Assembly (NCBI GenBank): GCA_934394435.1
Contig: CAKRRN010000008.1
Location: 4,290-68,289, forward strand
Direction: 5' to 3'
DNA from: an uncultured Bacteroidaceae bacterium
GTDB taxonomy: Bacteria; Bacteroidota; Bacteroidia; Bacteroidales; Bacteroidaceae
DNA length: 64,000 nucleotides
A model generated the notes under the pieces. The model was not told the origin of the DNA. It searched no databases and was given only the letters and a program-made list of their open reading frames with translations. The translations under genes were made by a program, and so were the position numbers. This document shows positions 4,087-47,613 of this stretch, piece by piece (position 1 is the first letter of the stretch; the number at the start of each line of letters is the position of its first letter).

Positions 4087-5721
4087 ATGAACAACAACAT
4101 TAAAGAAAGGCTCACACCGCTACTCATCTCACTTGGTGTCGTTGTCGGAATACTGATTGGCACCTTCTGCACAAGCCATTTCTCAGGCAACCGTTTAAGC
4201 ATCATCAATACCGGCACAAACAAGCTCAGCTATCTGCTACAGATAATTGACAACAACTACGTCGACACCGTAGACATGGCACAGCTGGTAGAAGACGCCA
4301 TGCCTGGCATACTGAAAGAGCTCGATCCACACAGCAGCTACCTAAGCGTACAAGATGCCAAGGAAGCTGACGATGACCTGCGCGGCTCATTCAGCGGAAT
4401 AGGTGTTAGCTTCGTCATGCAGAAGGATACCGTAAACGTAATGTCCGTCATCCATGGAGGTCCCGCAGAAAAAGTAGGCATACTGGCTGGCGACCGCATC
4501 ATTACCGCCAACGACTCTAACCTCGTGGGAATGCAGTCACAAGACGTGATGAAACACCTCAAGGGAGCCAAGGGAAGCAAGGTCAAGCTGGGAATCGTAC
4601 GACACGGAGCAAAAGGCGTCACCACCTTCACCGTCGTACGTGGAGACATCCCCGTTGTAAGCGTAGATGCCTACTATATGATCAACGACGATACAGGATA
4701 CCTGCGCGTCAAGAACTTTGGTGAACAGACCTATGCTGAGATGCTGGTAGCACTGGCTGAACTGAGCGTCAAGGGCATGAAGGGACTCGTGGTCGACCTA
4801 CGAGGAAACGCAGGAGGATACATGCACATTGCCATACAGATGGCAAACGAATTCCTACCCAAAGGCAGACTGATTGTGTACACACAAGGGCGGAAAAGCC
4901 CCAGAGAGGAATTTCGGAGCGATGGGAGAGGCACCTTCCAGACAATTCCCCTGGTTGTGCTCATGGACGAGGGAAGCGCAAGCTCAAGTGAGATCTTCGC
5001 TGGAGCCATTCAAGACAACGACAGGGGAACCATCGTAGGCAGACGCTCCTTCGGAAAAGGACTCGTACAGCAGCCCGTAGAGTTTCGCGATGGGAGTGTG
5101 GTTCGCCTCACCATCGCACGATACTACACACCCAGCGGACGATGCATACAGAAACCCTATGAAAAGGGACATGGAGAAGACTACGAGAACGAACTCCTGG
5201 CACGCTACGAGCGAGGAGAATTCTTCTCACAAGACAGCATACACCAAGACGGACCCTCCTATAAGACACGTATCGGACGAACCGTCTATGGAGGAGGAGG
5301 TATTGTGCCCGATGTCTTCATACCAGAAGACACCACTGCCCTCACCTCTTACTACCGCGAAGCACTCTTAACAGGACACATACGGCAGTTCGCCTTCGCC
5401 TATACAGATGCCAACCGAGACAAACTCATGCAGTATCCCACAGCATCGAAAATGGAAGCCTACCTGCGCACACAGTCGCTGCTCGAACAATTCGCACGCT
5501 TCGCTGACAAGCATTCGCTCCGACGCAGAAACCTCATGCTCTACAAGAGCCGTCGCCTCTTCGAGCGTGCCATCTATGGAAACATCATCTATAATGCCCT
5601 CGACATGAGCGAATACATTCAATTCCTCAACGAAAGCGACCCGACCGTGCTACGCGCTGTAGACATCCTTGAGAAAGGAGAGTCTGTACCAAAGAAACCC
5701 CAGAAGGATAAAAAATCATAA
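4087..5721 (+). CDS. S41-family C-terminal processing peptidase with PDZ domain
   Basis: N-terminal TM anchor, PDZ block GPAEKVGILAGDRII, and catalytic block GSASSSEIFAGAIQDNDRGTIVGRRSFGKGLVQ. Confidence 0.9.
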   Translation: MNNNIKERLTPLLISLGVVVGILIGTFCTSHFSGNRLSIINTGTNKLSYLLQIIDNNYVDTVDMAQLVEDAMPGILKELDPHSSYLSVQDAKEADDDLRGSFSGIGVSFVMQKDTVNVMSVIHGGPAEKVGILAGDRIITANDSNLVGMQSQDVMKHLKGAKGSKVKLGIVRHGAKGVTTFTVVRGDIPVVSVDAYYMINDDTGYLRVKNFGEQTYAEMLVALAELSVKGMKGLVVDLRGNAGGYMHIAIQMANEFLPKGRLIVYTQGRKSPREEFRSDGRGTFQTIPLVVLMDEGSASSSEIFAGAIQDNDRGTIVGRRSFGKGLVQQPVEFRDGSVVRLTIARYYTPSGRCIQKPYEKGHGEDYENELLARYERGEFFSQDSIHQDGPSYKTRIGRTVYGGGGIVPDVFIPEDTTALTSYYREALLTGHIRQFAFAYTDANRDKLMQYPTASKMEAYLRTQSLLEQFARFADKHSLRRRNLMLYKSRRLFERAIYGNIIYNALDMSEYIQFLNESDPTVLRAVDILEKGESVPKKPQKDKKS

Positions 5722-5816: not shown

Positions 5817-6056
5817 TCAGAACCCTCTGTCTCTCCCTCTATTCCAGTTCACAGAGTCGCTTGCCTCTCCCAAGCACAGAAGCAGGATAATAGCAAGAAG
5901 CGGACTGCCCAAAAAAGCAACTATCAACCACGCTACAGCACTGCGGTTCCGCCTCTCTGCCATCTTCGCCACCAGAACATAAAGTACGACAACTATAGCC
6001 AGAGTGACAGCAGCCACCAACAATCCTAAGATTGCAAATCCAAAAACCTGAGTCAT
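5817..6056 (-). CDS. Small (79 aa) two-TM membrane protein, paralog of 6641-6952
   Basis: Hydrophobic segments. About 40 residues (LYVLVAKMAERRNRSAVAWLIVAFLGSPLLAIILLLCLGE) are identical to the 103-aa ORF at 6641-6952. The KxxxxxWxxxxxxxPxxG pattern resembles small PLDc_N-type membrane proteins; that assignment is weak. Confidence 0.5.
   Translation of the reverse strand: MTQVFGFAILGLLVAAVTLAIVVVLYVLVAKMAERRNRSAVAWLIVAFLGSPLLAIILLLCLGEASDSVNWNRGRDRGF
5869..5985. repeat. 117-bp direct repeat, copy 1 (partner at 6675-6791)
   Basis: Hand alignment to 6675-6791 gives 8 mismatches in 117 nt. The repeat lies inside the small membrane protein ORF. Confidence 0.85.
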
Positions 6057-6457
6057 TTCATTTTTATTTTTTTATTCTTAATATCAGAGAGCAACAACAA
6101 GCACGCACATCGTACAGCCACTCTCGTAAGCATTCCAGCAGGAAAACCTACAAAACAAAGTTAATATAATATTTTCTGGATAGAACGAAAAACAGCAAAA
6201 AAATCAAAAACCATAAAAAAGAACAAGCCCTTCATTCACAACACTATCCAAGATGTGTTTTTCTCAAATCGCTCATCTGAAAATTCAACTTTCCTTTTAT
6301 CTTCAAGCCGCAGAGGAAAATCCAGTATTCCGATTAGTCTTTATACCCCCATTTCCAATCTACAGACAAGCAAGCTTGATCAGATAAGCATAGGTTGTAG
6401 CTGTGAATTTGCGTCCTAAGTTCCCCTGGGGCTATCGGGTGAGTCCCCTCCCCCCTC

Positions 6458-6640: not shown

Positions 6641-6952
6641 TTATCGTATTGTTGAGTCGTTATTTTCTGATTCCCCCAAACACAAAAGTAGGATAATAGC
6701 AAGAAGCGGACTGCCCAAAAAAGCGACTATCAACCATGCGACAGCACTGCGGTTTCGCCTCTCTGCCATCTTCGCCACAAGAACATAAAGTCCTATAACA
6801 AGGGCAATAATTCCTATCACAAAACACAATACCCAAATGACCATTCCAACAATAAGCCAAATATTCTGTTCTTCGTCAAGACTGTCTGTCGTATGCGCAA
6901 AGATGAAGATAGGCAAAATGAATCCTAAAAGCAAGGTCATTAGTCTTTTCAT
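6641..6952 (-). CDS. Small (103 aa) multi-TM membrane protein, last gene of the island operon
   Basis: ATG lies 14 nt after the stop of the upstream gene. There are three hydrophobic segments, and the C-terminal about 40 aa are identical to the 5817-6056 product. Confidence 0.55.
   Translation of the reverse strand: MKRLMTLLLGFILPIFIFAHTTDSLDEEQNIWLIVGMVIWVLCFVIGIIALVIGLYVLVAKMAERRNRSAVAWLIVAFLGSPLLAIILLLCLGESENNDSTIR
6675..6791. repeat. 117-bp direct repeat, copy 2 (partner at 5869-5985)
   Basis: See copy 1. All differences fall in a stretch where the two encoded peptides are identical, so they are synonymous. Confidence 0.85.
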
Positions 6953-6966
6953 GTCTTTCCTACCTA

Positions 6967-7530
6967 TTAAAGTTCTTCCAATTCAGCATCACCATCCGTA
7001 TTCTCCGTTTTCAAGAACGAGAGGAACAGTCGCAGAAAGGCAGTCTCTTTGAAGAAACAATTTGGGTCTACCTCCATCTGTTCTGAAATGTAGGAAAGTC
7101 CGTAGTTTGCATACTGCTCCATCTTGTCAATCAGTTGGTCCACAATCTTCCTGCTGCTAACTTCTCCTTTGTCCAAAGCAATCAAATCGACATCTGTGCG
7201 AGCTATCAATGCAGCAAAAATAAACTTCTGGAGTTTCTCGTAAGGCATTCTGCCCCCTCTGGGCTCAATATTACCCCATTTCTGTATTGGCCACCCAAAC
7301 TTCTTTCTCTTTGCTCTGTCCTCTACCAATGGCTTAGTGCTGTCAAAGTACAGCCCTATGAAGAATGCTATGATAAACATTTCATAACCTGCTCCATATG
7401 GTTTTGCGCGAACAGCCTGATAAGAATTTCGCCCACGACCATAGTCACAAAACACATCCATGACTGACTCTTGATATCGAGTTTCCCATTCAGGGTCTCT
7501 CCTGCTCCATAATTCGAATAAACTCTCCAT
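6967..7530 (-). CDS. Island protein, 187 aa, unknown function (partner of the DndD-like ATPase)
   Basis: ATG lies 2 nt after the stop of the 722-aa gene. AT-rich codon usage matches the island. I recognise no motif. There is one hydrophobic stretch, YEMFIIAFFIGLYF. Confidence 0.65.
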   Translation of the reverse strand: MESLFELWSRRDPEWETRYQESVMDVFCDYGRGRNSYQAVRAKPYGAGYEMFIIAFFIGLYFDSTKPLVEDRAKRKKFGWPIQKWGNIEPRGGRMPYEKLQKFIFAALIARTDVDLIALDKGEVSSRKIVDQLIDKMEQYANYGLSYISEQMEVDPNCFFKETAFLRLFLSFLKTENTDGDAELEEL

Positions 7531-9705: not shown

Positions 9706-9942
9706 CTATACGCTTTTCTTTAAAAATTCCGTAATTTCCTTGTAGATTTCTCTGTCAGAAGCTCCCTCTGAAGCGCGTATAATAATATGTGCCACAGCAT
9801 TTATAACATAATTGTCAGAATCCTCAGCTTGGTAAGCAGAGGTGAAATTCAAGTCGCTTTCGCTATACTTTCCAAACTTCATCAGTTCTGGATTGAGCAG
9901 AACAGCCTCCAGCATTTTGTCGTTGTTAGTCATGTATGCCAT
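9706..9942 (-). CDS. Island protein, 78 aa, acidic, unknown function
   Basis: Sits between the helicase gene (2-nt gap) and the SMC gene (4-nt gap). No recognisable motif. Confidence 0.5.
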   Translation of the reverse strand: MAYMTNNDKMLEAVLLNPELMKFGKYSESDLNFTSAYQAEDSDNYVINAVAHIIIRASEGASDREIYKEITEFLKKSV

Positions 9943-9944
9943 AT

Positions 9945-12167
9945 CTATAAAATTGATAGATTATAATATGAAACAGTTTCTTCTAATTCTCTGTATGTAT
10001 AGTCCGCATTTTCTGAGAGAGAAGCAAAATCACGCACACGTTTCAGTTCTATCTCAAGCAGACTCCTTTCCATGTTGTAACTTTCTTCAGAGTCGCTAAC
10101 CCATGGTGCAACTATCAAGTCATGGATTATCGCTCGGTGCTTGTCCTTATGCTTACGCAGGATTCTTCCTCTTCTCTGCACAAATTGCCGTGGGTTACCT
10201 GTACTTGCACAAAAAATAGCCATTTCGCTACGCGGCACGTCGACACCTTCGTCCAGACACTTCATGGATGTCAAAACTTCAAGACGCCCGCAGGCAAAGT
10301 CATCCAAGAGCTTGGTACGTTCTCTGGAATCTGAGGTAAACTCCCTTACGGTCGTTTGCGGACTTGTTCTGTAGACCATCTGGGTGTATCTGTCTATCAG
10401 ATGTTCAGACACTTCATCCACTCCCAAAGCATCTGTTGTCTCGAACAAATCTGAAACCGCGTCTGGGCTGTTTCCTTCAGGAACATAAACCAACGTATAT
10501 TTCAGATTGCCCTTTTCTTTGTATCGCTCCTTCAGTATGGCCTCAAATACAGGCTCCTTCTGCTGGGCTTTATGAATAATGCGCTTTCGCTTCAGCAAAA
10601 GAGCTGTCAATATGTCGTTCCCTTGTGCGAACGAATCTCTGTCATAACTAAAGAATTTAGAAAGTTGCCTTGATATTCTCAGATAATCAGCCATTTCCGC
10701 ATCGTTCAACCTCACGACATGAGGATAGTAATAATAACGGCACAGGAAATCATTATCTATGGCCTCACGCATCGAATACTCGAATGTAAAACCATCCGTA
10801 CTACCAAAGAAAGTATTTATCCTCTGGTTACCCAAGTCATCAAACTGACGGTAAGGAGTGGCAGACAAGCCTATTCTTCTCAGATAGCGGATGCTGTCCA
10901 TTCTATCCAGCATTCTCCTCGACCCCATATTATGTGCCTCATCTGCAATCAAAAGAGTTCTATTCTTCGAGAAAGAGTTGAGAGAAGAGAACACATTGTC
11001 CCTTACAAACGAGGAATAGGTTGAGATGATAATGAATGAGTCACCACATCCAGACCGATTAAAGTCTTCTTTCAGATGAAGCAAATCCACCTCGTTTCTC
11101 CAATTCTTGTTTTTAGAATAGACAGTATAGACATTTGAGAAGTCGAACTTCTTGCATTCATCCACCCATTGCTCTACCAATGTTTGGGTTGGTACAAGGA
11201 TGATTGCTTTATAATATCCCTTCCTCTTATAAATCTCCAACAAGCAATTGAGCGATGTAATGGTCTTGCCTGTACCTGTTGCCATCGCAAATAGACCTTT
11301 TTGCCCATTGCTCTTCCAATTTTCGAAGGCTTGATGCTGATATTCGCGAGGACCAGAAGGATAAGGAAAATGAGGCTCTTTGGTATAGTTGTCTTCGCAT
11401 ACCATAGGTAAGACATCGCTCCTATCTGCTTCTGTTCTCCTTTCCTTTATATTCTTGAGTTTCCTTTCCACATCGAGCAATTCTTCCACATCCTTACCTC
11501 CAAAAGTAGACACGACCGCCACCTCAAGTTCTTTGGGAGAAAGATATTCTACCCCTCCCTTTTGATGACTCATAATTGATTCGAACTCTACCCGCTGGCT
11601 TTCTATGCGCTTGCGCACCATAGTGTCAATGCTGTCACTACGATCAATTTTGATTTCCTCTATATTATTGAACAAACCGCTTACCGTGAAGTTTGCAGAA
11701 CCCGTAAAGGAAGTCACACTATCTCCGTCCCTAAACTGTCCAGATTTCGTATGAGCAATACCTCTACGATTACGTGGACATATGATACGAATGTCTATCC
11801 GCTTGTTATAAATAAGGAATGCAAGGCATTCGAAAAACTGCTGCTGATATTCGTCTAAGGTTTGTCTTAACGACTCAAAGTCAGTTAGGTCAAAGCAGTC
11901 TATCAACCCACCGTATACGCCTTTGCTTATGGCATTTTTGTCTGACTCTGAGACTATATGATTTATCACAAGGCGCATTCTTCCACCGTTGACGATAAAT
12001 GTGGCAAATCCATCGGCAAGCACACTTATCGCAGCTGAACTGAAATAGCCCAGTTGAAGGTCAAACTCTGTACTATTTCTCAACCCATCATTGAAGAATC
12101 TCTCTGGTGAATTATATTCTCCAGGACGATAAGTGCCGTCCTCTGCCCAGTTTACATCATATAGCAT
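9945..12167 (-). CDS. PLD-family (single HKD) nuclease domain fused to SF2 DEAH helicase
   Basis: N-terminal IAHTKSGQFRDGD...GSANFT (one HKD-like motif). Helicase motifs: LFAMATGTGKT (I), LIADEAHNMG (II), LGLSATP (III), QRRGRILR (VI). ATG at 12167 is preferred. The ORF-track start at 12203 is a TTG that overlaps the upstream gene. Confidence 0.8.
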   Translation of the reverse strand: MLYDVNWAEDGTYRPGEYNSPERFFNDGLRNSTEFDLQLGYFSSAAISVLADGFATFIVNGGRMRLVINHIVSESDKNAISKGVYGGLIDCFDLTDFESLRQTLDEYQQQFFECLAFLIYNKRIDIRIICPRNRRGIAHTKSGQFRDGDSVTSFTGSANFTVSGLFNNIEEIKIDRSDSIDTMVRKRIESQRVEFESIMSHQKGGVEYLSPKELEVAVVSTFGGKDVEELLDVERKLKNIKERRTEADRSDVLPMVCEDNYTKEPHFPYPSGPREYQHQAFENWKSNGQKGLFAMATGTGKTITSLNCLLEIYKRKGYYKAIILVPTQTLVEQWVDECKKFDFSNVYTVYSKNKNWRNEVDLLHLKEDFNRSGCGDSFIIISTYSSFVRDNVFSSLNSFSKNRTLLIADEAHNMGSRRMLDRMDSIRYLRRIGLSATPYRQFDDLGNQRINTFFGSTDGFTFEYSMREAIDNDFLCRYYYYPHVVRLNDAEMADYLRISRQLSKFFSYDRDSFAQGNDILTALLLKRKRIIHKAQQKEPVFEAILKERYKEKGNLKYTLVYVPEGNSPDAVSDLFETTDALGVDEVSEHLIDRYTQMVYRTSPQTTVREFTSDSRERTKLLDDFACGRLEVLTSMKCLDEGVDVPRSEMAIFCASTGNPRQFVQRRGRILRKHKDKHRAIIHDLIVAPWVSDSEESYNMERSLLEIELKRVRDFASLSENADYTYRELEETVSYYNLSIL

Positions 12168-12181
12168 AACATATTGGATTT

Positions 12182-13282
12182 TCAGATAAAACAATTGGCA
12201 CAAACGTATTCATCACCAAAAAGTTCAGCGAGACTTGTACCTTTGTTCTTGCTTTTGTTGGCTTCCTGCCGCTTGATGATATCCAACTTTACCTGTCGAA
12301 TGCGCTCCGGCTTAATTAAATCAGCCAAGCTCTCATTCTGAATCCAAGTATAGCCATCCTTTTCAAAAGACATTGCTTTCTTGTATAGGTCAGGATGCTG
12401 CTCGTAGAGCCAAATCCACTCTATTTTCTGTTGAAAGAAACAGAAATAGCAACCACTTCTACTACGACAATAAGTGCCTGTTTTACCATCTACCTCGAAA
12501 GGGATCTCTTCATAATAAGCAGGCACTCCCACTCCGCTTTCTCTCAACAGCCGGAAGATGTCTTCCTTTACCAAAACCTCATCATTATCAATCAGCGGAA
12601 ATGAATCAAGATGACCTACTGGATAATCAGTAGTCTTCAAAAAATCAAACACAGCATGATTGAACATCTTCACATTTACGTCCAATAATGCATTCAGCTT
12701 CTTGGAGTAAAAGAATTGTTTGGTGATAGGCTTTTTAAGGACGTCCATCAAGTCCTCTTTCATCATGCCATCTGGGCACAATTTGTCATAGATGTCGATA
12801 ATCTGCTCTTGGTTTTCCTTATGCAAGAACTTATTGATAACATCCACACTCCAGATATTCCTTCTGAAAGGAAAGACTGACTGAATATTTGGTTTGGATG
12901 ATACATAGCCATCACGGTCTTCATCACCACGGATTCCCACGTACGAAACCGCATAGTCATCGCCCACATACCTCTCAAACTCATCCAGTTTCATTTTCTT
13001 AGTACACCAACGAGCTTGTGGTGAAGGCAAGAAGCCTCCAGCAGCTTTCAAGAAATGCTCAAAAGGCGTTGGCTCAGGACTGTCTTCCGCAGCCCTAAGT
13101 CTTTTGATACTTCCGAGATAAGCACTCAGTCTATCTATCAGTAGTTCTGTCTCCGCCAACTCACACCCAGTATCCGAGTTATAATACTCAATCTTCAAGG
13201 TTGGGTATTTCTGTTTGAGATAGATGGCAAGTGCAGCACTATCCTTTCCACCAGATATTCCTAATATATTTCGTACTTTCAT
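12182..13282 (-). CDS. PP-loop ATP pyrophosphatase of the PAPS-reductase/DndC/SspD-like family
   Basis: N-terminal ILGISGGKDSAALAIYL (SGGKDS PP-loop) and a C-terminal Cys cluster YCRSRSGCYFCFF (C-x6-C-x2-C). 366 aa. Confidence 0.8.
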   Translation of the reverse strand: MKVRNILGISGGKDSAALAIYLKQKYPTLKIEYYNSDTGCELAETELLIDRLSAYLGSIKRLRAAEDSPEPTPFEHFLKAAGGFLPSPQARWCTKKMKLDEFERYVGDDYAVSYVGIRGDEDRDGYVSSKPNIQSVFPFRRNIWSVDVINKFLHKENQEQIIDIYDKLCPDGMMKEDLMDVLKKPITKQFFYSKKLNALLDVNVKMFNHAVFDFLKTTDYPVGHLDSFPLIDNDEVLVKEDIFRLLRESGVGVPAYYEEIPFEVDGKTGTYCRSRSGCYFCFFQQKIEWIWLYEQHPDLYKKAMSFEKDGYTWIQNESLADLIKPERIRQVKLDIIKRQEANKSKNKGTSLAELFGDEYVCANCFI

Positions 13283-13306
13283 TTTCGTTTTTGTTTGCAG
13301 AAAAGA

Positions 13307-16300
13307 CTATTTGCCTAACTTCTTATTTAATATTTTCAGTAATGTGCATACTGACACATTGTCGTTTTCTACCCTATCAAGGAGTTTGTCTATATTTTTT
13401 TCCAGTTCCTCCGATTTCTGCAATTCACTCTCTGGCAATCGGAATGTTTGAGAATGAATGTTATTTCCCTTGGTAGAAACTAAATCCAGCGAATAGATTT
13501 CATCCGACTCATATTTAGCTACTTTCGAGATATCCGAGTATTTCTCACATTCACGAAAGAGCATAATCAGACTATCAATCAACTTCTCCTCTTGCTCATC
13601 ACGCAATCGCTCCAATGGCTGTTCCAATGCAGTATAACATATTGATTGATACCATTCATTCCTATTGTCAAACTCAGCCATCACATGCTGATAGAATTCT
13701 TTCAATCTATCCGTTAGCAAATACTCTTTGACATTGGCAAGACGTTGTCTTATCGTTACAACGTATCCTGAATAATCGTAAGAGTCAATGCCCAATGTGT
13801 CAAGCAAACGGCCTTCCACACGGTCTATCATATCGGAATAGCAAGAACGCAGTTCCTTGACAGCACGGTTGATTACATAGCAAAATTCCTCTACTTTCTT
13901 TGGATTCTGCAATGCTTCCTTATCATAGCCCAATGTCTCAGGCAAATCTTCAAAGAAGGTTTTCTCTGGGTCTTTTGCCTTAGCTAATGTATCACGGAAC
14001 TTTGCCGTCTGCTCATGATTGAACTTACGGGTATGCTTGGCATAGTCATTCAGTCTCTTGTTGTAGAAGAAAAAGAACGGTTTGATGGTCTCTATGAAAT
14101 CATCGCTCTTGATACTCCCCATAGCCTCAACGTTCAGAAACTTTCTGTACTGATTAAAGATTTGCACCTTTACTCCCGTCACATCAAAAGCCTTGATAAA
14201 ATATTCACCTGGATGCTTCTGCAACAATTCAAAGAACTCCATATTGATGTTCGGAATATAAGCTCCATTGGCTCCATATAGAGAGTAGTCTTGCTTCTTT
14301 ATATATAAATAGGTAGGAATCCAAAAGTCCAAGAATCCTTGCTTCAATTTATATGGTTTAGCCGACAACTTCTTTATCAGTTCAGAAATCTTACGAGCCT
14401 TAAAAGTTGTCGATTTCAAAAACTCTTCACATGCTTCCCACAAAGGCATAATTCCCTCATTAGAGGGCACATCAGAGAACTCCCCATTCATATGAAGCCC
14501 CGTGCTTTTCAACAGAGAATAATAGATGGTCTTCTCTGGAGGAAATTTATCGGCAGGGAATCCTAAATCAGCCTCACTGCTTTGGCTTAGCAATGCAGCC
14601 AAGTACTTTCCCTTAGCACAGGATATGGAACTGCTCAACTTATGCTTATTAAACAATTCGTTATTCATCACTGGTGTTTGTGAATAAATCTCATCACAAA
14701 CCACAGAGAGCAACTGGTTGAATTCTCGCAAAGAGCGGACTTCTCTTTCCTCTCCCTTGAATATCCATGTGACATCTCCACTATAAGCAAACAAGCTCTC
14801 GCTGATAGACTTATTGAGCACCACCTTCTCATACTCCATCAGGTTGTTTATCTCATTGATTGCCACCTTGTCCGACTTATCAATCAGGACTTTACTCAAT
14901 ATGTATTTGAATTTCTCTATTTGATAAAGATGAGATACCAACTCGTCAGTATTTCTAAAACAAACAAAGATGATAGCATTTTCACTCTTCGCGCTGAGTT
15001 CACAAAGCTCCTCTAATACAGTTTTATGAGATGAAAATATCAGCTGTATGAATCCATCTGTATCGCCAACAGGAGTTTTATCCGCACCTTCTCCAAGCAC
15101 CTCATATTCAAAATACCTTGGAGTTCCTTTTTGGAAATAGCAAGCCTTTACTGGAGCTACCTTCTTGAAACAATAGTTTCTGATGTCATCCACATAATTC
15201 ACAGGACGACTCACCACCAATCCCGCTTTGCGTATCTCATCCTCTATGTTTATGTCTGTTCCATCAAACAAAATATAACGGAGCTTATAGTTGGCATAAC
15301 GGATTATCTTGAATTGCTCCAACTTATTCAAGAGACTCGTTGGGTTCTCTATATCTAAAGCCATCTTTGCATACGCAGCTGTTTTCTCTCGGTTCATTTT
15401 GAAAGAAGAATTGCCAAAAAGGTTCAATAAACCAATAGCCTTCACCAACTTGATGGCATCTACCAAATCCGTCTTCGTATTCCAAAGTTGTCCCTCCACT
15501 CTCTCAATGGCGACTTGCATAGAACTCCATTGCATAGAATCGGCATTAGCCTCTTTCAGATAAGAGTAGAAGTTGTAATAAATGTAATCATAGCAGCACT
15601 GAAGCTGATAGACCTTACCAGCAAACTCCGACAAAGAGTTTCGTCCCCTTGCATTCAAGAAAGAAAACAAGGAGCGTTCGTTTTGTCCGTATCGCTGAAT
15701 GGCTTGCGTAATAACACAAGCGGCAAAAGGCTCTAATGGAGACAACGCATGAGCGGTCGCTTTCGAGAAACTTTGAGAGACAAAACCCGTCTTCTTCGCT
15801 AATGAAGCCAAAGATTCTATTGTCTTTTCGTTGCTCCGCTTATCCAACAAATCTGACTTTATCTGCATCGAAGCCAAATAAAGAAGTTGCTCTACAGGCT
15901 CCACAAATACCAACTCCTGGAAACGTCCCTTTACTTTGGTCCACTCCTCCTTTTGAACCTCGTTGAGCTTTCGCGAATATGCGTTGAAATTCTGATGAAG
16001 TGTAGTCAAAAGCAAAATGTTTCTTGTTGGCACATTGACAAATTCTGCCAACTTTTGCATAAAGTAAAGTTCTCTTTCTGGATTATTCTTGGCTGCATGC
16101 TCCAAGACCTTGCCAAATTCATCAATAAAGATAACCAAAAACTTACCTTGGCTCTTCAGCTTATTGTATCTATTGCGAAGCTCGTCAAGAATGCTACCTG
16201 TTGTGCCCTCCACAGATAGTTTCTGACTTAACAACACAGAAAGTTCCTTATAGTCACCAATAATTTTAAGAATCTCGAATCTCTTTTTCCCCGAAAGTTC

Positions 16301-16531
16301 CGTAGGATTCAACAATTCATATTGCTTTCCACCCATCAAGTCTCTCTCTAATGCCAACAAGAAACTTGATTTACCCGTTCCGTATGAGCCAATAATCGTA
16401 TAAGAATGAACCCCAGAGCGGAATCCGTTTACGATACCCTCAGCCACCTGTCGGGCATTGGGAGTAACTATATATTGAGCCTCTTTCGCAAAGCCCTCTT
16501 CTATATTTGCGGATAAACTAAACTGTCGCAT
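13307..16531 (-). CDS. Large (1074 aa) P-loop NTPase, SspC/BrxC-like by position and motifs
   Basis: Walker A IIGSYGTGKSSFLLAL and Walker B FLVIFIDEFGKVLEH near the N-terminus. The remaining about 850 aa have no motif I recognise. The start overlaps the upstream gene by 14 nt. Confidence 0.7.
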   Translation of the reverse strand: MRQFSLSANIEEGFAKEAQYIVTPNARQVAEGIVNGFRSGVHSYTIIGSYGTGKSSFLLALERDLMGGKQYELLNPTELSGKKRFEILKIIGDYKELSVLLSQKLSVEGTTGSILDELRNRYNKLKSQGKFLVIFIDEFGKVLEHAAKNNPERELYFMQKLAEFVNVPTRNILLLTTLHQNFNAYSRKLNEVQKEEWTKVKGRFQELVFVEPVEQLLYLASMQIKSDLLDKRSNEKTIESLASLAKKTGFVSQSFSKATAHALSPLEPFAACVITQAIQRYGQNERSLFSFLNARGRNSLSEFAGKVYQLQCCYDYIYYNFYSYLKEANADSMQWSSMQVAIERVEGQLWNTKTDLVDAIKLVKAIGLLNLFGNSSFKMNREKTAAYAKMALDIENPTSLLNKLEQFKIIRYANYKLRYILFDGTDINIEDEIRKAGLVVSRPVNYVDDIRNYCFKKVAPVKACYFQKGTPRYFEYEVLGEGADKTPVGDTDGFIQLIFSSHKTVLEELCELSAKSENAIIFVCFRNTDELVSHLYQIEKFKYILSKVLIDKSDKVAINEINNLMEYEKVVLNKSISESLFAYSGDVTWIFKGEEREVRSLREFNQLLSVVCDEIYSQTPVMNNELFNKHKLSSSISCAKGKYLAALLSQSSEADLGFPADKFPPEKTIYYSLLKSTGLHMNGEFSDVPSNEGIMPLWEACEEFLKSTTFKARKISELIKKLSAKPYKLKQGFLDFWIPTYLYIKKQDYSLYGANGAYIPNINMEFFELLQKHPGEYFIKAFDVTGVKVQIFNQYRKFLNVEAMGSIKSDDFIETIKPFFFFYNKRLNDYAKHTRKFNHEQTAKFRDTLAKAKDPEKTFFEDLPETLGYDKEALQNPKKVEEFCYVINRAVKELRSCYSDMIDRVEGRLLDTLGIDSYDYSGYVVTIRQRLANVKEYLLTDRLKEFYQHVMAEFDNRNEWYQSICYTALEQPLERLRDEQEEKLIDSLIMLFRECEKYSDISKVAKYESDEIYSLDLVSTKGNNIHSQTFRLPESELQKSEELEKNIDKLLDRVENDNVSVCTLLKILNKKLGK

Positions 16532-17381
16532 TCTTATAATATTTATCTAAAACGTCTATGCCTGTTAAAGAAAGACCTTCCCTAAACAATAGCTGACGAA
16601 TACCAGCATTGTCACTATACTGAACATAATCAGAATACGCTTCACCAATAGATTGTACCATATCTATCACCTCTGCGTCTGTCATGCAGAACATCAACCC
16701 AATCTCTTGCAAAGTATCGTAAGAAACGGACTTATCCTCACCTTTCTCTTGCAAAATAGCATATAGAAAGATTTCCATAGGGACCTTTCGCTTGCCCTCA
16801 ATATTAAAGGTGAACGATTTGCCATTATCCTCTGTTCTGATTAAATCCAAATCTATGAGAAGAGAAGAATAATCCTCAAAAGACTTTGCCTTATAAGGCT
16901 GGGCATAGTTTTGCAACAAGACACCCACGTCCTTCTTGGTAGTATTGGCATTAAACGGTTTGTCTTTCCTATCATCTATCATGAGTCTCTTGACAAAACT
17001 TACAAGCTGGTCTCTCTCAAAAGCCTTTCTTTCTTTCTGAAACTGTACAAAAGCGATATGATAAAGAGTTGCCTCTCTTTGACTTACTAACAGGTAATGA
17101 AGCAACCACAATGTTCCCAAACTCTCGATGTACTTATCTACGCCATCTGTTCCGTCAAAAAGATATTTCGCTATCTTTGTTGGCTTATCTTGCTCAGACA
17201 ATCCGAAAACCTTCAGCCAATAACGGATAGAAGAAACCATATTCTTGCCTACCCCCAAAGCGACAACCGCATCAGAAGCATTGAAGTTTCCTCCATCTAT
17301 CATAAAATTATATCCCTTGGTGAGCCATAAAGTTTTACAAGGAAAAGATTCATGCCCAGAGAGCGTGTATTTATTGTACAT
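16518..17381 (-). CDS. DUF4007-like protein (SspB-like), first gene of the island operon
   Basis: N-terminus LSGHESFPCKTLWLTKGY and LGVGKNMVSSIRYWLKVFGL match my recollection of the DUF4007 signature (GHE.F..R..WL.K / LGVGKNMV.S.RYW). 287 aa. Confidence 0.65.
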   Translation of the reverse strand: MYNKYTLSGHESFPCKTLWLTKGYNFMIDGGNFNASDAVVALGVGKNMVSSIRYWLKVFGLSEQDKPTKIAKYLFDGTDGVDKYIESLGTLWLLHYLLVSQREATLYHIAFVQFQKERKAFERDQLVSFVKRLMIDDRKDKPFNANTTKKDVGVLLQNYAQPYKAKSFEDYSSLLIDLDLIRTEDNGKSFTFNIEGKRKVPMEIFLYAILQEKGEDKSVSYDTLQEIGLMFCMTDAEVIDMVQSIGEAYSDYVQYSDNAGIRQLLFREGLSLTGIDVLDKYYKNATV

Positions 17382-18137
17382 CTATCCAGTAAAGACAGCC
17401 GAATCCCAAAGCCGAAATGTTTAATCCTCCTGCGTTTGTACCTCTACAAAAAAGGAAGCGTGGGATCCTTCACTTGCCCATCCCACTACTCGAAGGCCTT
17501 CGCATTGCCCAACTGTCGAGACGGACAATGCAGAAAGCCCACGCTTGTATGGCATATAGCTCTGCATATAAAGGAAACAGCACGAAGGACACAAGACACT
17601 ATCATGTCCGCATCCACACACATAACTGTTCGCTGCAGGTTACAATACACCTACCGTGGACATTCACCCATTGTCTCACCTGCTGACAGTTTGGTAAAGT
17701 TGCGAAGTTTACGAGTAGTCGCAGACGAGCGTCAAGTAAACGCCCTTTCCGTAAAAGTAGCACCCTCCCCACCCCCTCTGGGGCTTTCTGCGAGGATAAT
17801 GCCTTGCAAATATAAGGATTTTTTATATACGGTTATCCGTCAAAGCACTAAAACAATATAATATTCTCATCCTTTTCCAACTCCTCAAACGTTAGCGGAG
17901 TGCTCCACCTGCCATAAGACTCTACGCAGAAGCATCACTACACCAACCTCGGGCGAAGAGACGACGGAACACTCTATCCCCAAAAGCTATGGATGGATAA
18001 CGTAAATGTGAATACAGACTAAGTATGCCTTCGCACAGCGACAACAGGAGAGGAAAAAGGCTCTGGAGAGAGAAAGGGTAAAAGGAATTTCCCACACTAA
18101 TCAAACTCTCGAAATCTTAATCTTATAGTTCTTAAAA

Positions 18138-18287
18138 CCAAATCGGTCATTAGAAAATTTTGCTTCCATTTTATCTCAAAATAGAGCAAAAGTCACGTAT
18201 TATGTTAGCATACAGATACTATAACGAGAGTATAACCTGATATAGTCTAACTTTTTGCATGGGAAAAATCTCTAATGACCGATTTGG
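18138..18287. mobile_element. MITE-like element, about 150 bp, with 17-bp perfect terminal inverted repeats
   Basis: CCAAATCGGTCATTAGA (18138-18154) is the exact reverse complement of TCTAATGACCGATTTGG (18271-18287). No ORF lies inside. The same TIR occurs at 24753/24949 and 50702. Confidence 0.6.
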
Positions 18288-18579
18288 GTTAAACAAACAG
18301 TAAGCAAACAAAATGAAGTACAATATCTCAAAAAAAAGACCGCTTCAAAGATGCAAAATCTGGGCAAAAGGAGAGAATTTTTAGCACTTTTGCTCTCGCA
18401 AGTGTCTCGAGACATGTACGAAGCCATTGTGCCCACAATTTTCCCTTCGCTCGGAGCAAACATAAGTGGAGCGGAATTTCTGTATCACGACCTCTCATGG
18501 AAGGAAACGAGCGGTATGTAGACCTATCCTGGTGGCAGGAAATTTATCTTATGCAAAGATTTATCCATTCGGGGATTTT

Positions 18580-21303
18580 TTACGGTTTTTCCGTACGCAG
18601 CACATACGAGCCTGAGCCAACCTCCATGACTGTATATCCAGCCTTCTCCTGCACCTTACGGATGCCCTTGCCCGTTGGCGGAAACACTCGGAAACGGTTT
18701 GGAATGCTCACGCGTGCCTCGGTACCTGCAGGAATCTCAATGCGCCACACAAGGTTGTTTCCCTCGCGCTGCCATTCGCTCTTGATGGGCCCCGAAGCGC
18801 TCTGGTAGGCTGCTTTCACATGATGAAGTTCCTCTGGGAAGCAAGGTTTCATTTCCAGATGACGATACCCCCGTGTGCCCTCCATCTGTCTGATGCCAGC
18901 CAGATCTTCGTAGTACCATAGCAGGAGGTCGCCCAACAGCATTACATGATTGCCGCTGTTCATTGCTGGGTTGGCTGTATCACCGTTCCACAACTCCCAA
19001 ATGGTGGTGGCTCCGTGGTCAATCATGTATCCGTAACTGGGGTAGCTGCGCTGGGTGACTATTTTCATAGCCAGGTCTGTATGGCCACGGCGCGTCAGAC
19101 CACGCATCAGATGCTGCATGCCCAGCACGCCACAACTCACGTGACCTCCAAACTTATCTTCCGTCACGCGCACGATGTTTTCCATCACACGTTCCTCTGC
19201 ACCTGCTGGCACCAGTCCCAGCTCGAGCGACAGGAGGTTGGCTGTGACGGTGTTGTTGCTATACTGAGCCGTTTCGGGGTTGAAGAACTTGCGGTTGTAA
19301 GCCTCCTTGATGCTCTGTTGCAGCTTGGCATAGTATCTGACGTCTGCTCCCAGTCCCAGCTCTTCGCCCATCTCCATCATCATCCGTAGGCAGTCGTAGA
19401 AAACGGTGGTGCCCAGCACTCTGCCGTCTGTAATGCGCTCAGGATCTTGGCTGTTGATGAGTTCTTTGCTTTCGGGAGGCATACACCAGTCGCCATAATT
19501 GTCGCGCACAACCACACCGTCCTCCATCAGTTCATTCTCCACATACTGCATCCAGCGTCTGAGGGCAGGATAGTGCTCTCTGACAGCCTGCAGGTCTCCT
19601 TCGTGTCTGAAGAGCATGTAGGTGGCGTAGACGAATGCGGCTTGCCAGGTAACATTCTGGCTGTAGAGCTTCAGATGTACAGGACAGATGTCGCTCACGT
19701 GACCTCCGTCTAATTGGGTATCCTCAATGTCGTGCAGCCATTTGTAGTAGAGCGCGCTGTTGTCAAACAGTATGTTTTCGCCAAAACAACCTGTCACGCG
19801 GTCGCCTGTCCAACCCAAACGCTCGTCGCGCTGTGGACAGTCCATAGGCATACCTTGATAATTGCCCCGTATGCCCCACTGGGCATTGTGGAACAGCTGG
19901 TTGAGTAGCTCGTTGTCGCACTCAAATGTGGCACGCTCCTCCATGAGGTCGTATTGTACTTCGCCCAGGATGTCTCCCTGTGAGGGAGCTTTCGTCACTC
20001 CGCTGATTTCCACATAGCGGAAACCCTGGTACACGAGTGAGGGCTGATAGCAAAACGTGCCATCCACGGCGGGAATGTATGTGTTTGTACTTCGTGCGCT
20101 TCGCAGGTTGGCTGTATAGAGGCTGTCCTTATGCACAGGATCCAGAATCTCTGCATGGCGGATGACCACAGGTTGTCCAGCTCTGCCACGCAACTTGACG
20201 CGCAGTTGCCCCACCATATTCTGACCCATATCCACCAGGTAACGCCCCTCACCTGTTTGCCGTATGCTCTGGGGCTTCACGCTCAATTGGGTACGTCGGC
20301 CCGGACAAGGTTGTGGCAGTAGGCTTCCGCCAGGAGCATTCATACGTGTAGCATGCTCCCATGCTGAGTCGTCGAATCCAGGCTTTGTCCAGCCCTTCTC
20401 CTCCAGCCGTGCGTCGTAAAGTTCACCCGTATAGAGATTGTTTGAACGGATGGGTCCTCTCGTGCTGGCACGCCATTTCTCTGACGTGCCTACAACAAGC
20501 GTGTCGTGTGGTGTCTCTACCACCAATTGCGCCATGAGACGGGGCAAGCCAAATGAGGTGTGCTCACGCCTAAGTCCCAGAGCGTAGCCGTTGCCCAATA
20601 CCGTTGCGATGGCATTCTCGCCCTTGTGCAGGAGAGAGGTGACGTCGTAAGTGTTGTAATAGACTGTCTTGTCGTAACCGCTCAGAACCGTTCCGAACAC
20701 GTCTTGACTGACAGGTTGCCCATTGATGAATGTGCTGCTCACACCCATGCCGCTGATGTAAAGTCGCGCTCGCACTACCTTGTCTGCCACATGGAACTCG
20801 TGTCTCAGGTAGCGTGCCGCAAGGTCCTTGCAGCCTCCTTCTTCCACCACCACCTTGTCATCATCTTTCACTCCAATCCAGCTGGCACTCCAGTTGTTGT
20901 ATTTCAGTCCAGTCGTGAACTTTTCTACCGCGCTCTTCACACACTCGCCTGTGTTGAGCCACACGGTCACCTGCCAGTAGACGTCCTTCTGGCTGGGAAG
21001 TTTGCGCCCTTGATAAGGCACCTGAAGCGTTTCTGTACTCTCTACCCGTTCGGAGTCCCAAAGCAACTGGTCGCCCTGACGTTTAAGCTCGGCAACGCTG
21101 GGAGCTACCACGATACGATAAGCTACCTGCCAAACATCCTGTTTTCCACTCTCCACTTGCCATGAGAACTGAGCTGTGCGCATCACTCCTGCAGCCTCCG
21201 ACATACGGTTTACCCGCAGTCCCTTCACTCTGCTTGCAGCCAATCCCACTCCAATACTCAAAGCACAGAGCACTAACATCATCCATATTCTCTTCATCAT
21301 CAT
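18580..21303 (-). CDS. GH78-family alpha-L-rhamnosidase, secreted
   Basis: Signal peptide MMMKRIWMMLVLCALS. Rhamnosidase N-domain-like block ARLYISGMGVSSTFINGQPV...YNTYDVTSLLHKGENA and the DCPQRDERLGWTGD block. Confidence 0.8.
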   Translation of the reverse strand: MMMKRIWMMLVLCALSIGVGLAASRVKGLRVNRMSEAAGVMRTAQFSWQVESGKQDVWQVAYRIVVAPSVAELKRQGDQLLWDSERVESTETLQVPYQGRKLPSQKDVYWQVTVWLNTGECVKSAVEKFTTGLKYNNWSASWIGVKDDDKVVVEEGGCKDLAARYLRHEFHVADKVVRARLYISGMGVSSTFINGQPVSQDVFGTVLSGYDKTVYYNTYDVTSLLHKGENAIATVLGNGYALGLRREHTSFGLPRLMAQLVVETPHDTLVVGTSEKWRASTRGPIRSNNLYTGELYDARLEEKGWTKPGFDDSAWEHATRMNAPGGSLLPQPCPGRRTQLSVKPQSIRQTGEGRYLVDMGQNMVGQLRVKLRGRAGQPVVIRHAEILDPVHKDSLYTANLRSARSTNTYIPAVDGTFCYQPSLVYQGFRYVEISGVTKAPSQGDILGEVQYDLMEERATFECDNELLNQLFHNAQWGIRGNYQGMPMDCPQRDERLGWTGDRVTGCFGENILFDNSALYYKWLHDIEDTQLDGGHVSDICPVHLKLYSQNVTWQAAFVYATYMLFRHEGDLQAVREHYPALRRWMQYVENELMEDGVVVRDNYGDWCMPPESKELINSQDPERITDGRVLGTTVFYDCLRMMMEMGEELGLGADVRYYAKLQQSIKEAYNRKFFNPETAQYSNNTVTANLLSLELGLVPAGAEERVMENIVRVTEDKFGGHVSCGVLGMQHLMRGLTRRGHTDLAMKIVTQRSYPSYGYMIDHGATTIWELWNGDTANPAMNSGNHVMLLGDLLLWYYEDLAGIRQMEGTRGYRHLEMKPCFPEELHHVKAAYQSASGPIKSEWQREGNNLVWRIEIPAGTEARVSIPNRFRVFPPTGKGIRKVQEKAGYTVMEVGSGSYVLRTEKP

Positions 21304-24186: not shown

Positions 24187-24443
24187 GAAACAAGCAAGCG
24201 AGCTACAGACCTACCGCACTGGTTCGACTGGGATACTCATCAATAATTTACATGAAACCGAGAAAAGTTTCATTTGCCAATGGCGGGCCACGCTCCGAAA
24301 GGAGTTCCGATGAGGACGGTGGATTACAAAGGCGATGAACACTCAAAACCTATTCATTCGGAGTTTCATCACATCACCAGTGCGGTTCCCATAGGAGCGG
24401 ACAGGAGTGCAACAAGACGCGCTTCTGCCCGCTCTCCTTTTTT
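24187..24443 (+). ncRNA. Candidate structured small RNA of unknown class
   Basis: ORF-free region. There is a -7-like TACCTTTG at 24174-24181, an 11-bp perfect long-range helix 24213-24223/24376-24386, a GNRA hairpin CTCC-GAAA-GGAG at 24293-24304 at the midpoint, and a T6-tailed stem at the 3' end. Confidence 0.4.
24394..24443 (+). terminator. Intrinsic terminator-like stem plus T6
   Basis: GGAGCGGACAG...CTGCCCGCTCTCC forms an imperfect stem followed by TTTTTT (24438-24443). Confidence 0.45.
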
Positions 24444-46292: not shown

Positions 46293-47492
46293 CTACCGAA
46301 TGGTGCCAGGATAGGCTTCCAACGCCTTCTGAAGGACAAAGAGAGCACGGTTAAGGTCTTCCTTCTTGAGTACGTATGCCAAACGTACCTGATCGCGTCC
46401 CGCTCCAGGAGTCGTATAGAAACCTGCTGCAGGAGCCATCATCACGGTCTCACCCTCATAGTTAAAATCGCTCAAGCACCATGCACAAAACTTCTCTGCA
46501 TCGTCAACTGGCAACTTGGCAACCGTATAAAAGGCACCCATAGGAATGGGGCTATAGACTCCAGGAATACGGTTCAGTCCGTCTATCAGACACTTTCTCC
46601 GCTCCACATACTCGTCATATACTTCCCTGCCATACTCCTCTGGCTCATCCAGACTGGCCTCCGCAGCAATCTGACCTATCAATGGAGGACTAAGGCGAGC
46701 CTGGCAGAATTTCATTACAGCCTGACGCACCTGAGCATTCTTGGTTATCAAGGCACCTATGCGGATGCCACATTCGCTATAACGCTTACTGACGGAATCA
46801 ATGAGCACTACGTTCTGCTCTATACCCTCCAGATGACAAGCACTTATATAAGGACTACCCGTATAGATAAACTCACGATACACCTCGTCTGAGAAGAGAT
46901 AAAGGTCATACTTCTTCACCAAGTCGCGTATCTGATTCATCTCCCTGCGTGTGTAGAGATACCCTGTTGGGTTGTTGGGATTGCAGATGAGGATAGCTCG
47001 AGTGCGCTCGTTGATGAGTTGCTCAAACTTCTCCACCTTGGGCAAAGAGAAACCCTCATCGATAGTTGTCGCTATGGTTCGGATGACAGCACCTGCCGAA
47101 ATGGCAAATGCCATATAGTTGGCATAGGCTGGCTCTGGTACGATAATCTCGTCACCTGGATTCAGACACGCTAAAAAGGAGAACAGCACAGCCTCAGATC
47201 CACCACTGGTGATGATGATATCCTCTGGAGTAAGATTGATGTGGTACTTTTCATAATACTTCACCAATTTGGTCCTATAGCTCAGATATCCCTGACTCGG
47301 ACTGTACTCCAAAATCTGACGGTCTATATTCTTAATTGCGTCAATCGCCGCTCGGGGAGTGGGCAGGTCTGGCTGTCCGATATTCAGATGATAAACATGG
47401 ACACCTCTCTGCTTGGCTGCATAAGCCAAGGGAGAAAGTTTCCTAATAGGAGACTCAGGCATCTGCATACCTCGAGAGGAAATTTCTGGCAT
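46293..47492 (-). CDS. PLP-dependent aminotransferase, class I (aspartate/aromatic-type)
   Basis: 399 aa from MPEISSRGMQMPESPIRKL. Contains NPNNPTG and the SVSKRYSECGIRIG (PLP lysine) blocks. Confidence 0.85.
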   Translation of the reverse strand: MPEISSRGMQMPESPIRKLSPLAYAAKQRGVHVYHLNIGQPDLPTPRAAIDAIKNIDRQILEYSPSQGYLSYRTKLVKYYEKYHINLTPEDIIITSGGSEAVLFSFLACLNPGDEIIVPEPAYANYMAFAISAGAVIRTIATTIDEGFSLPKVEKFEQLINERTRAILICNPNNPTGYLYTRREMNQIRDLVKKYDLYLFSDEVYREFIYTGSPYISACHLEGIEQNVVLIDSVSKRYSECGIRIGALITKNAQVRQAVMKFCQARLSPPLIGQIAAEASLDEPEEYGREVYDEYVERRKCLIDGLNRIPGVYSPIPMGAFYTVAKLPVDDAEKFCAWCLSDFNYEGETVMMAPAAGFYTTPGAGRDQVRLAYVLKKEDLNRALFVLQKALEAYPGTIR

Positions 47493-47613
47493 TATCTTAT
47501 CCTGTTTGATTTGTTTGGTCCTGCAAAGGTACAACAAAAGCGCAAAACACAAGCCATCGCACTAACGATTTGTTTTCCCCAGTCATTTCTCTTCCCCTAT
47601 GCCAACTGGGTAC

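Follow-up and report, generated by a model that had tools for sequence, protein, structure and literature searches.

A probable operon of an Ssp-type DNA phosphorothioation module and a PbeABCD-like effector module in an uncultured Bacteroidaceae bacterium

The DNA analysed here is a stretch of 64,000 nucleotides (nt) of contig CAKRRN010000008.1 from an uncultured Bacteroidaceae bacterium, referred to below as the window, and its subject is a set of three tightly packed genes on the minus strand, sspB to sspD (12182-17381 (-)), with the genes that follow them. A preliminary description, made from the sequence itself, had read these genes as an SspBCD-like modification trio with a short PP-loop enzyme and no sulfur donor encoded nearby. 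Its coordinates, its 14-nt overlap of sspB and sspC (16518-16531) and its 24-nt gap between sspC and sspD (13283-13306) proved exact. The coupled string of genes does not end at 12182, as it had supposed: the ATG of a pbeA-like gene lies at 12167, 14 nt after the sspD stop codon, and further genes follow with gaps of 2, 4 and 2 nt. A longer, TTG-initiated version of the pbeA-like reading frame, from 12203, is not needed. From upstream to downstream, the features of the locus are as follows (lengths in amino acids, aa).

17440-17814 (-): Bacteroides-type -7 box and structured RNA of about 350 nt, upstream of sspB
16518-17381 (-): sspB, 287 aa, DUF4007 protein, predicted to recognise and nick DNA within the Ssp modification module
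13307-16531 (-): sspC, 1074 aa, P-loop ATPase related to BrxC/PglY
12182-13282 (-): sspD, 366 aa, PAPS-reductase-like PP-loop ATP pyrophosphatase, predicted sulfur-transfer enzyme
9945-12167 (-): pbeA-like gene, 740 aa, HKD (PLD-family) nuclease fused to an SF2 helicase, predicted effector nuclease/translocase
9706-9942 (-): gene in the PbeB position, small protein, 78 aa long or, if translation starts at an internal ATG, 69 aa
7533-9701 (-): pbeC-like gene, 722 aa, ABC ATPase with Rad50/SMC-like heads and a CxxC hook
6967-7530 (-): gene in the PbeD position, conserved 187-aa protein with an acidic tail
6641-6952 (-): last gene of the operon, predicted membrane protein of 103 aa

For comparison, we used 80 related loci (L001-L080), which are the best 80 of 368 places found with the SspD query in species-representative genomes and belong almost entirely to Prevotellaceae or other Bacteroidales from gut and rumen. 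Together with the window itself, which matches by construction, they make up 81 sources, and a gene was counted as present in a source when more than 50% of the query was covered.

The affiliation of the 287-, 1074- and 366-aa proteins with the Ssp modification family is established at the level of sequence and gene order, and the earlier reading of the trio stands, all three proteins having strong PADLOC matches. The 287-aa protein matches Pfam DUF4007 at E = 4.1e-75, with the whole profile covered from residue 7, the PADLOC SspB profile at E = 3.1e-88, and the SspB structures 6JUF/6LB9 in the Protein Data Bank (PDB) at E = 3.7e-18 over residues 7-285. The 1074-aa protein matches the PADLOC SspC profile over its full length with 1179 bits, compared with 205 bits for BrxC; a PDB sequence search with it gave no match. 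The Walker A (GSYGTGKS, residues 48-55) and Walker-B-like (VIFIDE, residues 133-138) motifs of this protein and the SGGKDS motif of the 366-aa protein (residues 10-15) are present, as previously noted. The order sspB-sspC-sspD is contiguous and co-oriented in the window and is the same in the related loci.

The 366-aa protein matches the PADLOC SspD profile at E = 4.6e-83, the match being split in two stretches, while its match to DndC (E = 7.5e-6) is confined to the PP-loop and that to BrxP reaches E = 0.004. The Pfam profile PAPS_reduct does not match it at E <= 0.01, because an insertion splits the domain; the same profile does match a 55%-identical relative (P0241) and short SspDs. A word-indexed protein search returned 7680 homologs at E <= 1e-5, the best 120 of which show 77-96% identity, are mostly 366-369 aa long and come from Prevotella, Alloprevotella, Hoylesella and other Bacteroidales. 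Canonical SspD representatives, obtained from a search of 50%-identity clusters, have about 270-300 aa, and the protein of the window is thus about 80-90 aa longer; the adjective "short" was therefore apt in relation to DndC and misplaced in relation to SspD. The canonical proteins align to it in two stretches, at about 1-140 and 235-355, and the alignment places an insertion of about 90 aa at about 143-235 and a short second one at about 257-270, neither of which occurs outside the Bacteroidales clade except in one relative with 55% identity. In the AlphaFold model of SspD (pLDDT 90.5), the 90-aa insertion is all-helical and the C-terminal tail is modelled with low confidence. The additional length is thus due to a helical insertion typical of Bacteroidales.

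The cysteine motif YCRSRSGCYFC has the spacing C272-x5-C278-x2-C281, which replaces the C-x6-C-x2-C given earlier. C272 is specific to the clade, canonical SspD having tryptophan at this position; conservation throughout the family is seen for C93 (in RWCT), C278, C281, C361 and C364, the last two forming a C-terminal C361-x2-C364 pair. Judging by this conservation, C93 is probably the sulfur-relay cysteine, and the CxxC pairs C278/C281 and C361/C364 probably form a four-cysteine site for a metal or an iron-sulfur (Fe-S) cluster.

A fold search of the PDB with the SspD model (Foldseek) placed the tRNA 2-thiouridylase MnmA/TrmU (2hma, E = 1.3e-4) at the top, followed by the Fe-S APS reductase 2goy and the PAPS reductases 1sur and 6vpu, then by LarE and GMP synthetase, with QueC structures ranking 36th and 48th. 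The TM-scores of these matches are low (0.2-0.5), because only the PP-loop core aligns. To our knowledge, no structure of SspD or DndC exists, and a PDB sequence search with SspD gave only marginal MnmA matches (E = 0.15). Profile and structure comparison, which the preliminary description had suggested for this protein, thus points to SspD by profile and to MnmA and APS/PAPS reductases by fold. No match to the QueC family was found for SspD in Pfam or NCBIfam, the PADLOC search for Dpd partners gave only a marginal helicase match, the DndC equivalog model TIGR03183 scored 18.9 bits against a cut-off of 290, and there were no matches to DndD or DndE. Among gut isolates, 34 carry C-ps-C, and all but two of these harbour sspBCD with or without sspE (PMC12914056). 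By likeness to these isolates, the product of the trio may be a gene-dependent single-strand Rp phosphorothioate (C-ps-C).

The absence of a cysteine desulfurase from the 64-kb window, reported earlier, holds in a Pfam scan of 37 of the 44 non-overlapping open reading frames (ORFs) of >=90 aa, including all of those of >=200 aa, and in a tblastn search with E. coli IscS, where the best E value was 0.69. The probe itself had been checked against the PDB, where it found IscS 1P3W at 907 bits and recovered DndA and SspA as well. The sole aminotransferases in the Pfam scan are two of class I/II, at 46293-47552 (-) and 59648-60931. Both were rejected as desulfurase candidates, the first on the basis of 183 bits for class I/II as opposed to a weak secondary Aminotran_5 match of 28.6 bits, the second as a class I/II aminotransferase. 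It should be noted that a quick scan could mistake the gene at 46293-47552 for a desulfurase, since it weakly passes the Pfam threshold for Aminotran_5.

The absence is not remarkable, contrary to what had been suggested: it is normal for the family. No gene of the IscS/SspA kind lies within 10 kb in any of the 80 related loci, the IscS probe found no match in any of the 220 loci that were fetched, and no desulfurase is found among the called genes of canonical loci of the short-SspD/SspFGH type. Typically, sspBCD form a three-gene operon, with sspA adjacent, located elsewhere or replaced by IscS (PMC8092258, PMC12914056), and sspA is dispensable where IscS serves (PMC8092258). An unlinked sspA is thus ordinary for Ssp systems and has already been described, and a linked sspA is not a defining feature. 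The earlier suggestion that the sulfur comes from a housekeeping desulfurase is supported by the Ssp identities of the trio and by analogy with the published systems (PMC8092258, PMC12914056), from which an unlinked enzyme of this kind would supply this trio.

The four genes directly downstream of sspD resemble the PbeABCD module in their order and in the sizes of their products. According to its re-annotation, that module consists of an HKD-SF2 nuclease-helicase (PbeA), a fast-evolving small protein, an ABC ATPase of the "CxC" type with a zinc hook (PbeC) and a DndE cognate (PMC10853773); in the type system, PbeB has 66 aa and PbeD 152 aa (PMC6459918). The 740-aa protein matches the PADLOC PbeA profile over its full length with 1034 bits, and in Pfam it matches ResIII, DEAD and Helicase_C together with a weak PLDc_2. 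With NCBIfam TIGR04095 ("DNA phosphorothioation system restriction enzyme", dnd_restrict_1), it scores 391.6 bits against a cut-off of 600, so by sequence it is related to this family and is not a curated equivalog. Residues H139, K141, D147, G156, S157 and N159 and the helicase motif I GTGKT (298-302) are invariant in 72 homologs, and motif II DEAH (409-412) reads DE[A/C]H in 72 of 72, position 411 being A in 50 and C in 22.

The 78-aa ORF fills the 243-nt gap between the pbeA- and pbeC-like genes; in metagenome contigs, the gene is called as 69 aa. It is the fastest-evolving gene of the cassette (median identity 45%), and a gap of about 230-260 nt is retained at its position in the relatives checked. 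The 722-aa ABC ATPase matches AAA_23 and AAA_15 in Pfam and Rad50/SMC-like families in NCBIfam. Its match to PADLOC PbeC, in the N-terminal head, is weak (E = 2.6e-22, 77 bits) and similar to that to LmuB. In the middle of the protein, the cysteines of the C365-K-V-C368 hook are invariant in 64 homologs, down to 32% identity, and the composition of the region at about 170-590 is typical of coiled coil.

The 187-aa protein gave no significant sequence match: Pfam and PADLOC were searched to E = 10, the PDB with the sequence by itself and with a profile of 35 sequences, and Pfam with all 35 members of the family, and the few matches, in Pfam and the PDB, were at chance level. Its AlphaFold model has a pLDDT of 76.6, and the best of 350,542 PDB chains for this model is DndE 4LRV (E = 2.8, probability 0.14, TM 0.48 by target length), which is not significant, so that the match is suggestive only. 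Some NCBI/UniRef records name this family of about 190 aa (6967-7530; homologs P0147, P0219 and P0220) "glycoside hydrolase family 15"; the name finds no support in sequence, model or genomic context and looks like an annotation error. The 103-aa membrane protein has a homolog in two of the 80 related loci (L006 and L007), is present in near-identical metagenome contigs, and is probably an accessory gene, not a core part.

No promoter or terminator signal stands out at the sspD-pbeA junction, and in scans for sigma-70 promoters and terminators the counts equalled the shuffled expectation. Bacteroidetes promoters differ from the sigma-70 type.

The seven-gene order (sspB, sspC, sspD, pbeA, the small protein, pbeC and the 187-aa protein) is constant wherever the genes are found, and most missing cases are contig ends. 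The numbers of sources with each gene product and the median identities over the loci are as follows.

SspB: 76 of 81 sources, median identity 56%
SspC: 77 of 81, 60%
SspD: 81 of 81, 81%, by far the most conserved gene
PbeA-like protein: 74 of 81, 59%
Small protein: 54 of 81, 45%
ABC ATPase: 68 of 81, 47%
187-aa protein: 65 of 81, 53%

The sspC/sspD and sspD/pbeA junctions are hot spots for the insertion of other defence genes. A true SspE (884 bits in PADLOC) lies between sspD and pbeA in four loci (L041, L044, L055 and L057), and a DndB-family gene is inserted at the junction in two (L076 and L080). A GmrSD_N protein with a Ser/Thr kinase is inserted in five loci (L039, L060, L067, L074 and L075), and a PDC-M31-like pair is represented by its ATPase in seven loci and by the partner in six; RhuM, the YhcG nuclease and a HATPase protein occur as further junction inserts in other loci. 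Inserts between sspC and sspD are found in L037, L039, L049, L055, L057, L072 and L076. In the window, tblastn with SspE (from L044) and with SspF/G/H-like proteins (from L087) gave nothing below E = 0.3, and no DndB homolog was found. In canonical short-SspD loci, the place downstream is taken by SspFGH-like genes (766, 537 and 1817 aa), and sspA is lacking.

The known systems share different parts of this arrangement. With SspABCD-SspE (Vibrio cyclitrophicus FF75 and E. coli 3234/A), the window has in common the order sspB-sspC-sspD, a DUF4007 SspB homologous to the solved structure, a P-loop SspC and a PP-loop SspD, and in E. coli 3234/A sspA is missing as well; moreover, the four relatives mentioned above carry SspE right after sspD. 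The window differs from this system in having no SspE, an SspD about 80-90 aa longer and a Pbe-like effector. With IscS-SspBCD-SspFGH of Vibrio anguillarum FF-93, it shares a three-gene modification module, which here would likewise rely on a housekeeping desulfurase, and, next to it, an effector of several genes with an ATPase and a translocase among them; here, however, the effector consists of an HKD-SF2 nuclease-helicase and a zinc-hook ABC ATPase, and there are no SspF/G/H homologs.

The four-gene order downstream of sspD matches that of the systems centred on the CxC ABC ATPase, such as DndCDEA-PbeABCD of Haloterrigena jeotgali A29 and many bacteria, where an HKD/SF2 protein, a small protein of about 66-78 aa, a coiled-coil ABC ATPase with a Cys hook and a partner of about 150-190 aa likewise follow directly after a phosphorothioation module. 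In the window, by contrast, the modification module belongs to the Ssp type (single-strand, with SspB and SspC) instead of DndCDE, the score of the PbeA-like protein does not reach the dnd_restrict_1 cut-off, and the 187-aa protein has no demonstrable homology to DndE. BREX type 4 (brxPCZL) of gut Bacteroidales occurs in the same host group, its BrxC is a homolog of SspC, and the RNA found upstream of sspB also precedes BrxP-like genes in three metagenome loci. BREX type 4 makes phosphorothioate, and BrxP is in effect an SspD-SspB fusion (PMC12914056); in the window, SspB and SspD are separate, the matches to BrxP (E = 0.004) and BrxC (205 bits) are far below the Ssp scores, and no BrxZ/BrxL-type proteins are found among the Pfam-scanned ORFs. 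The pairings described so far are Dnd-DndFGH, Dnd-PbeABCD, Ssp-SspE and Ssp-SspFGH (PMC12707154, PMC8092258, PMC6459918). We found no description of an Ssp-Pbe pairing in the literature, of which our coverage was incomplete, and a survey of ssp genes in the gut microbiome makes no mention of pbe.

On this basis, we regard it as probable that the locus is a phosphorothioation-based defence operon of seven to eight genes, in which an SspBCD modification module is combined with a PbeABCD-like effector. By analogy with the systems of Vibrio and E. coli, SspB would recognise and nick a short motif, SspC would supply ATP-driven scanning, and an unlinked desulfurase encoded elsewhere in the genome would load persulfide onto SspD, which would insert sulfur into one DNA strand, giving a single-strand phosphorothioate at the short motif. 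Known Ssp systems, including those of gut isolates, produce C-ps-C (PMC12914056). The ABC ATPase and its small partner would survey the DNA, and the HKD-helicase would attack DNA without the mark. The Pbe-like module would thus most likely be the restriction arm, in the place held by SspE or SspFGH in the described Ssp systems. Functional coupling of the Ssp and Pbe halves is what we infer. In the relatives, a link to phosphorothioation is indicated by the SspE and DndB genes within the same cassette.

Several points weigh against this interpretation. In V. cyclitrophicus, deletion of sspA abolishes modification despite a chromosomal iscS (PMC7188994), and the use of a housekeeping donor is therefore system-specific. 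The PbeC-like and 187-aa proteins are assigned mainly via position, size and motifs. CxC/Pbe-type modules occur without modification genes and may act independently (PMC10853773). Finally, the identities to the window are discordant within single loci: SspD is 96% but the ABC ATPase 35% identical in L001, and SspB is 77% but the ABC ATPase 86% identical in L006. These sequence comparisons imply that the Ssp and Pbe halves are shuffled between lineages by recombination between module variants.

The main alternative is that SspBCD and the Pbe-like genes are two independent neighbours in a defence island, SspBCD being solitary, with an epigenetic or redox role, and the Pbe-like genes forming a system of their own for abortive infection or restriction. 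Examples of solitary SspBCD have been described (PMC8092258), and the CxC/Pbe modules are often found without phosphorothioation genes, their dependence on modification having been questioned (PMC10853773). As many as 320 of 553 pbeAC pairs were reported as "solitary" (PMC6459918), but this count, of 2019, predates the discovery of Ssp, and ssp genes were not looked for. The discordant identities suggest recombination at the sspD/pbeA junction, where unrelated defence genes are inserted in about 15 relatives; on the other hand, the two genes are adjacent in 74 of the 81 sources, the window included, across many genera, and in the window they are 14 nt apart, with no promoter or terminator signal standing out between them. 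We consider independent neighbours unlikely.

It is very improbable that the PP-loop enzyme makes a modification other than phosphorothioate, such as a base modification via an adenylated intermediate of the QueC type, which had been raised earlier as an alternative. The clade-specific insertion of about 90 aa, the extra conserved C272 and the failure of Pfam PAPS_reduct to match SspD at E <= 0.01 could be read in its favour, but the cysteines conserved across the family are common to the short SspDs that PAPS_reduct does match. The SspD profile match (E = 4.6e-83) and the canonical sspB-C-D order argue for Ssp chemistry, as do the residues conserved throughout the family and the nearest folds, both of the kind seen in sulfur-handling PP-loop enzymes (MnmA and APS/PAPS reductases, with QueC 36th, behind sulfur-transfer enzymes), the SspE and DndB genes within the cassette of relatives and the C-ps-C of sspBCD gut isolates (PMC12914056). 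Equally improbable is a decaying or silent remnant, the dedicated sulfur donor being absent, which is suggested by the indispensable SspA of V. cyclitrophicus (PMC7188994) and by ten gut isolates with minimal dndCD or sspBCD sets and no detectable phosphorothioate (PMC12914056) and is opposed by seven intact ORFs, a median SspD identity of 81% across genera with every catalytic motif invariant, an identical island in several human gut metagenomes, and the lack of a linked desulfurase in 80 relatives, which makes the absence ancestral in a maintained family.

About 20 of the 80 related loci (L001-L011, L017, L033, L041, L052, L062, L066, L073, L077 and L079) share a stretch of about 440 nt upstream of sspB that is conserved as strongly as coding sequence. 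It begins with a -7 promoter box, TAtaTTTG, at 17814-17807, followed by a conserved RNA at about 17797-17449, whose 3' end is formed by a long-range stem (GCGTGGG...CCCACGC) and a U-run (17457-17446), 64 nt before the sspB ATG. In RNAalifold, the RNA gives 40 pairs, 13 of them with compensatory changes; 97% of the cells of the alignment are paired compared with 36-57% in slid controls, the covariation score is 0.40 compared with 0.09-0.14, and the folding z-score is -4.68. Rfam has no match to it at E <= 1.

The pattern of the 3' domain of this RNA matches 7 viral and >=120 metagenome contigs; the 127 new loci considered here are L094-L220. A covariance model of the 3' domain scored 51-102 bits in all 87 of the new loci searched, and an alignment of 97 matches (92 distinct sequences, including 10 cassette loci) has 99.5% of the cells paired and seven compensatory pairs, values to be read with the fact that this alignment was fitted to the covariance model, which favours the structure. 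One metagenome contig (L135) carries two copies of the 3' domain 1 kb apart, at 13082-13179 and 14085-14182, which shows that a single locus can hold more than one copy of the RNA.

A specific connection of the RNA with Ssp was rejected, as sspB lies downstream in only 2 of the 127 new loci. The RNA sits 6-75 nt upstream of very diverse genes: the first gene downstream falls into 69 clusters among 114 loci, with BrxP-like PAPS reductases, UvrD-like helicases, vWA proteins, BspA-type leucine-rich repeat proteins, NusG paralogs and a Dam methylase among the genes that follow. The genes upstream of it are equally diverse; in nine loci, an ORF of about 300-330 aa, Abi-like by eye, lies divergently upstream. 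The RNA is thus generic and not Ssp-specific. It may act as a leader or attenuator, as an element of processive antitermination, or as a small RNA in its own right.

The operon lies in a low-GC island at about 5.7-18.6 kb of the window, with a GC content of about 0.40 compared with about 0.50 around it. On one side it borders the gene of a housekeeping S41 peptidase (4087-5721 (+)), on the other that of a rhamnosidase (18580-21303 (-)). A near-identical island at the same chromosomal site is present in one gut metagenome contig (99.98% identity), and Hadza and other gut metagenome contigs also have the island, with 97.4-99.3% identity where aligned; the left-flank genes are kept in three of five of those contigs. 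We looked for a tRNA gene, an integrase and long flanking repeats at the island borders and found none, nor was an empty site found; the exact S41-peptidase protein has no database record.

Some smaller features of the island were also observed. Four near-identical contigs (L081, L082, L083 and L085) have an extra insertion of about 840 bp at window position 6351-6359, with an ORF weakly matching DDE_Tnp_1 inside and a 9-bp overlap of the alignments like that expected of a target-site duplication; neither the window nor L084 has it. A 128-nt direct repeat with 91% identity (5866-5993 and 6672-6799) shows that a fragment of the 103-aa membrane-protein gene has a second copy in the non-coding DNA that separates the island from the S41 peptidase gene. 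At the other end, the roughly 750 nt between the rhamnosidase gene and the leader RNA (17822-18579) contain no convincing ORF and include a 33-nt inverted repeat (18129-18161 / 18264-18296). The island-bearing metagenome contigs tend to stop near window position 17530. Elsewhere in the window, a Bacteroidales-1 RNA, proposed to be 6S-like, was found at 24212-24393 (+) with 140.6 bits; it marks the DNA as that of a member of the Bacteroidales. The host is taken to be a gut bacterium of the Prevotellaceae (Segatella/Prevotella type).

As a member of a known family, the Ssp trio flagged in the preliminary description is routine; what may be new is the whole Ssp-Pbe cassette. Both the Prevotellaceae and other Bacteroidales reach very high abundance in samples from human gut and rumen, and in them Ssp would be tied to a Pbe-type module and not to the effectors studied so far. 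A broader reading, which we put forward only tentatively, is that SspBCD-PbeABCD is a third, unnamed Ssp effector pairing beside SspE and SspFGH and the default in gut and rumen Bacteroidales, that it explains many of the "solitary" pbeAC pairs, and that the features of the SspD insertion and the RNA are functional; as part of this reading, the helical insertion of SspD, about 90 aa long, could serve as a docking site for a sulfur donor that is not dedicated to the system.

The pbeAC pairs that have been called "solitary" are accordingly worth re-reading, and the Ssp-Pbe cassette is a testable candidate for the exclusion of phages and foreign DNA in poorly tractable bacteria. At one and the same junction, some cassettes have SspE, DndB or another insert and others have none, a natural series in which to study how the mark is coupled to the effector. 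A further lead, on the control of accessory genes in Bacteroidales, is the RNA shared upstream, which may be more novel than the main finding: promoter-proximal to dozens of unrelated defence and surface-protein cassettes, this RNA of about 350 nt could be a common regulatory RNA for accessory genes.

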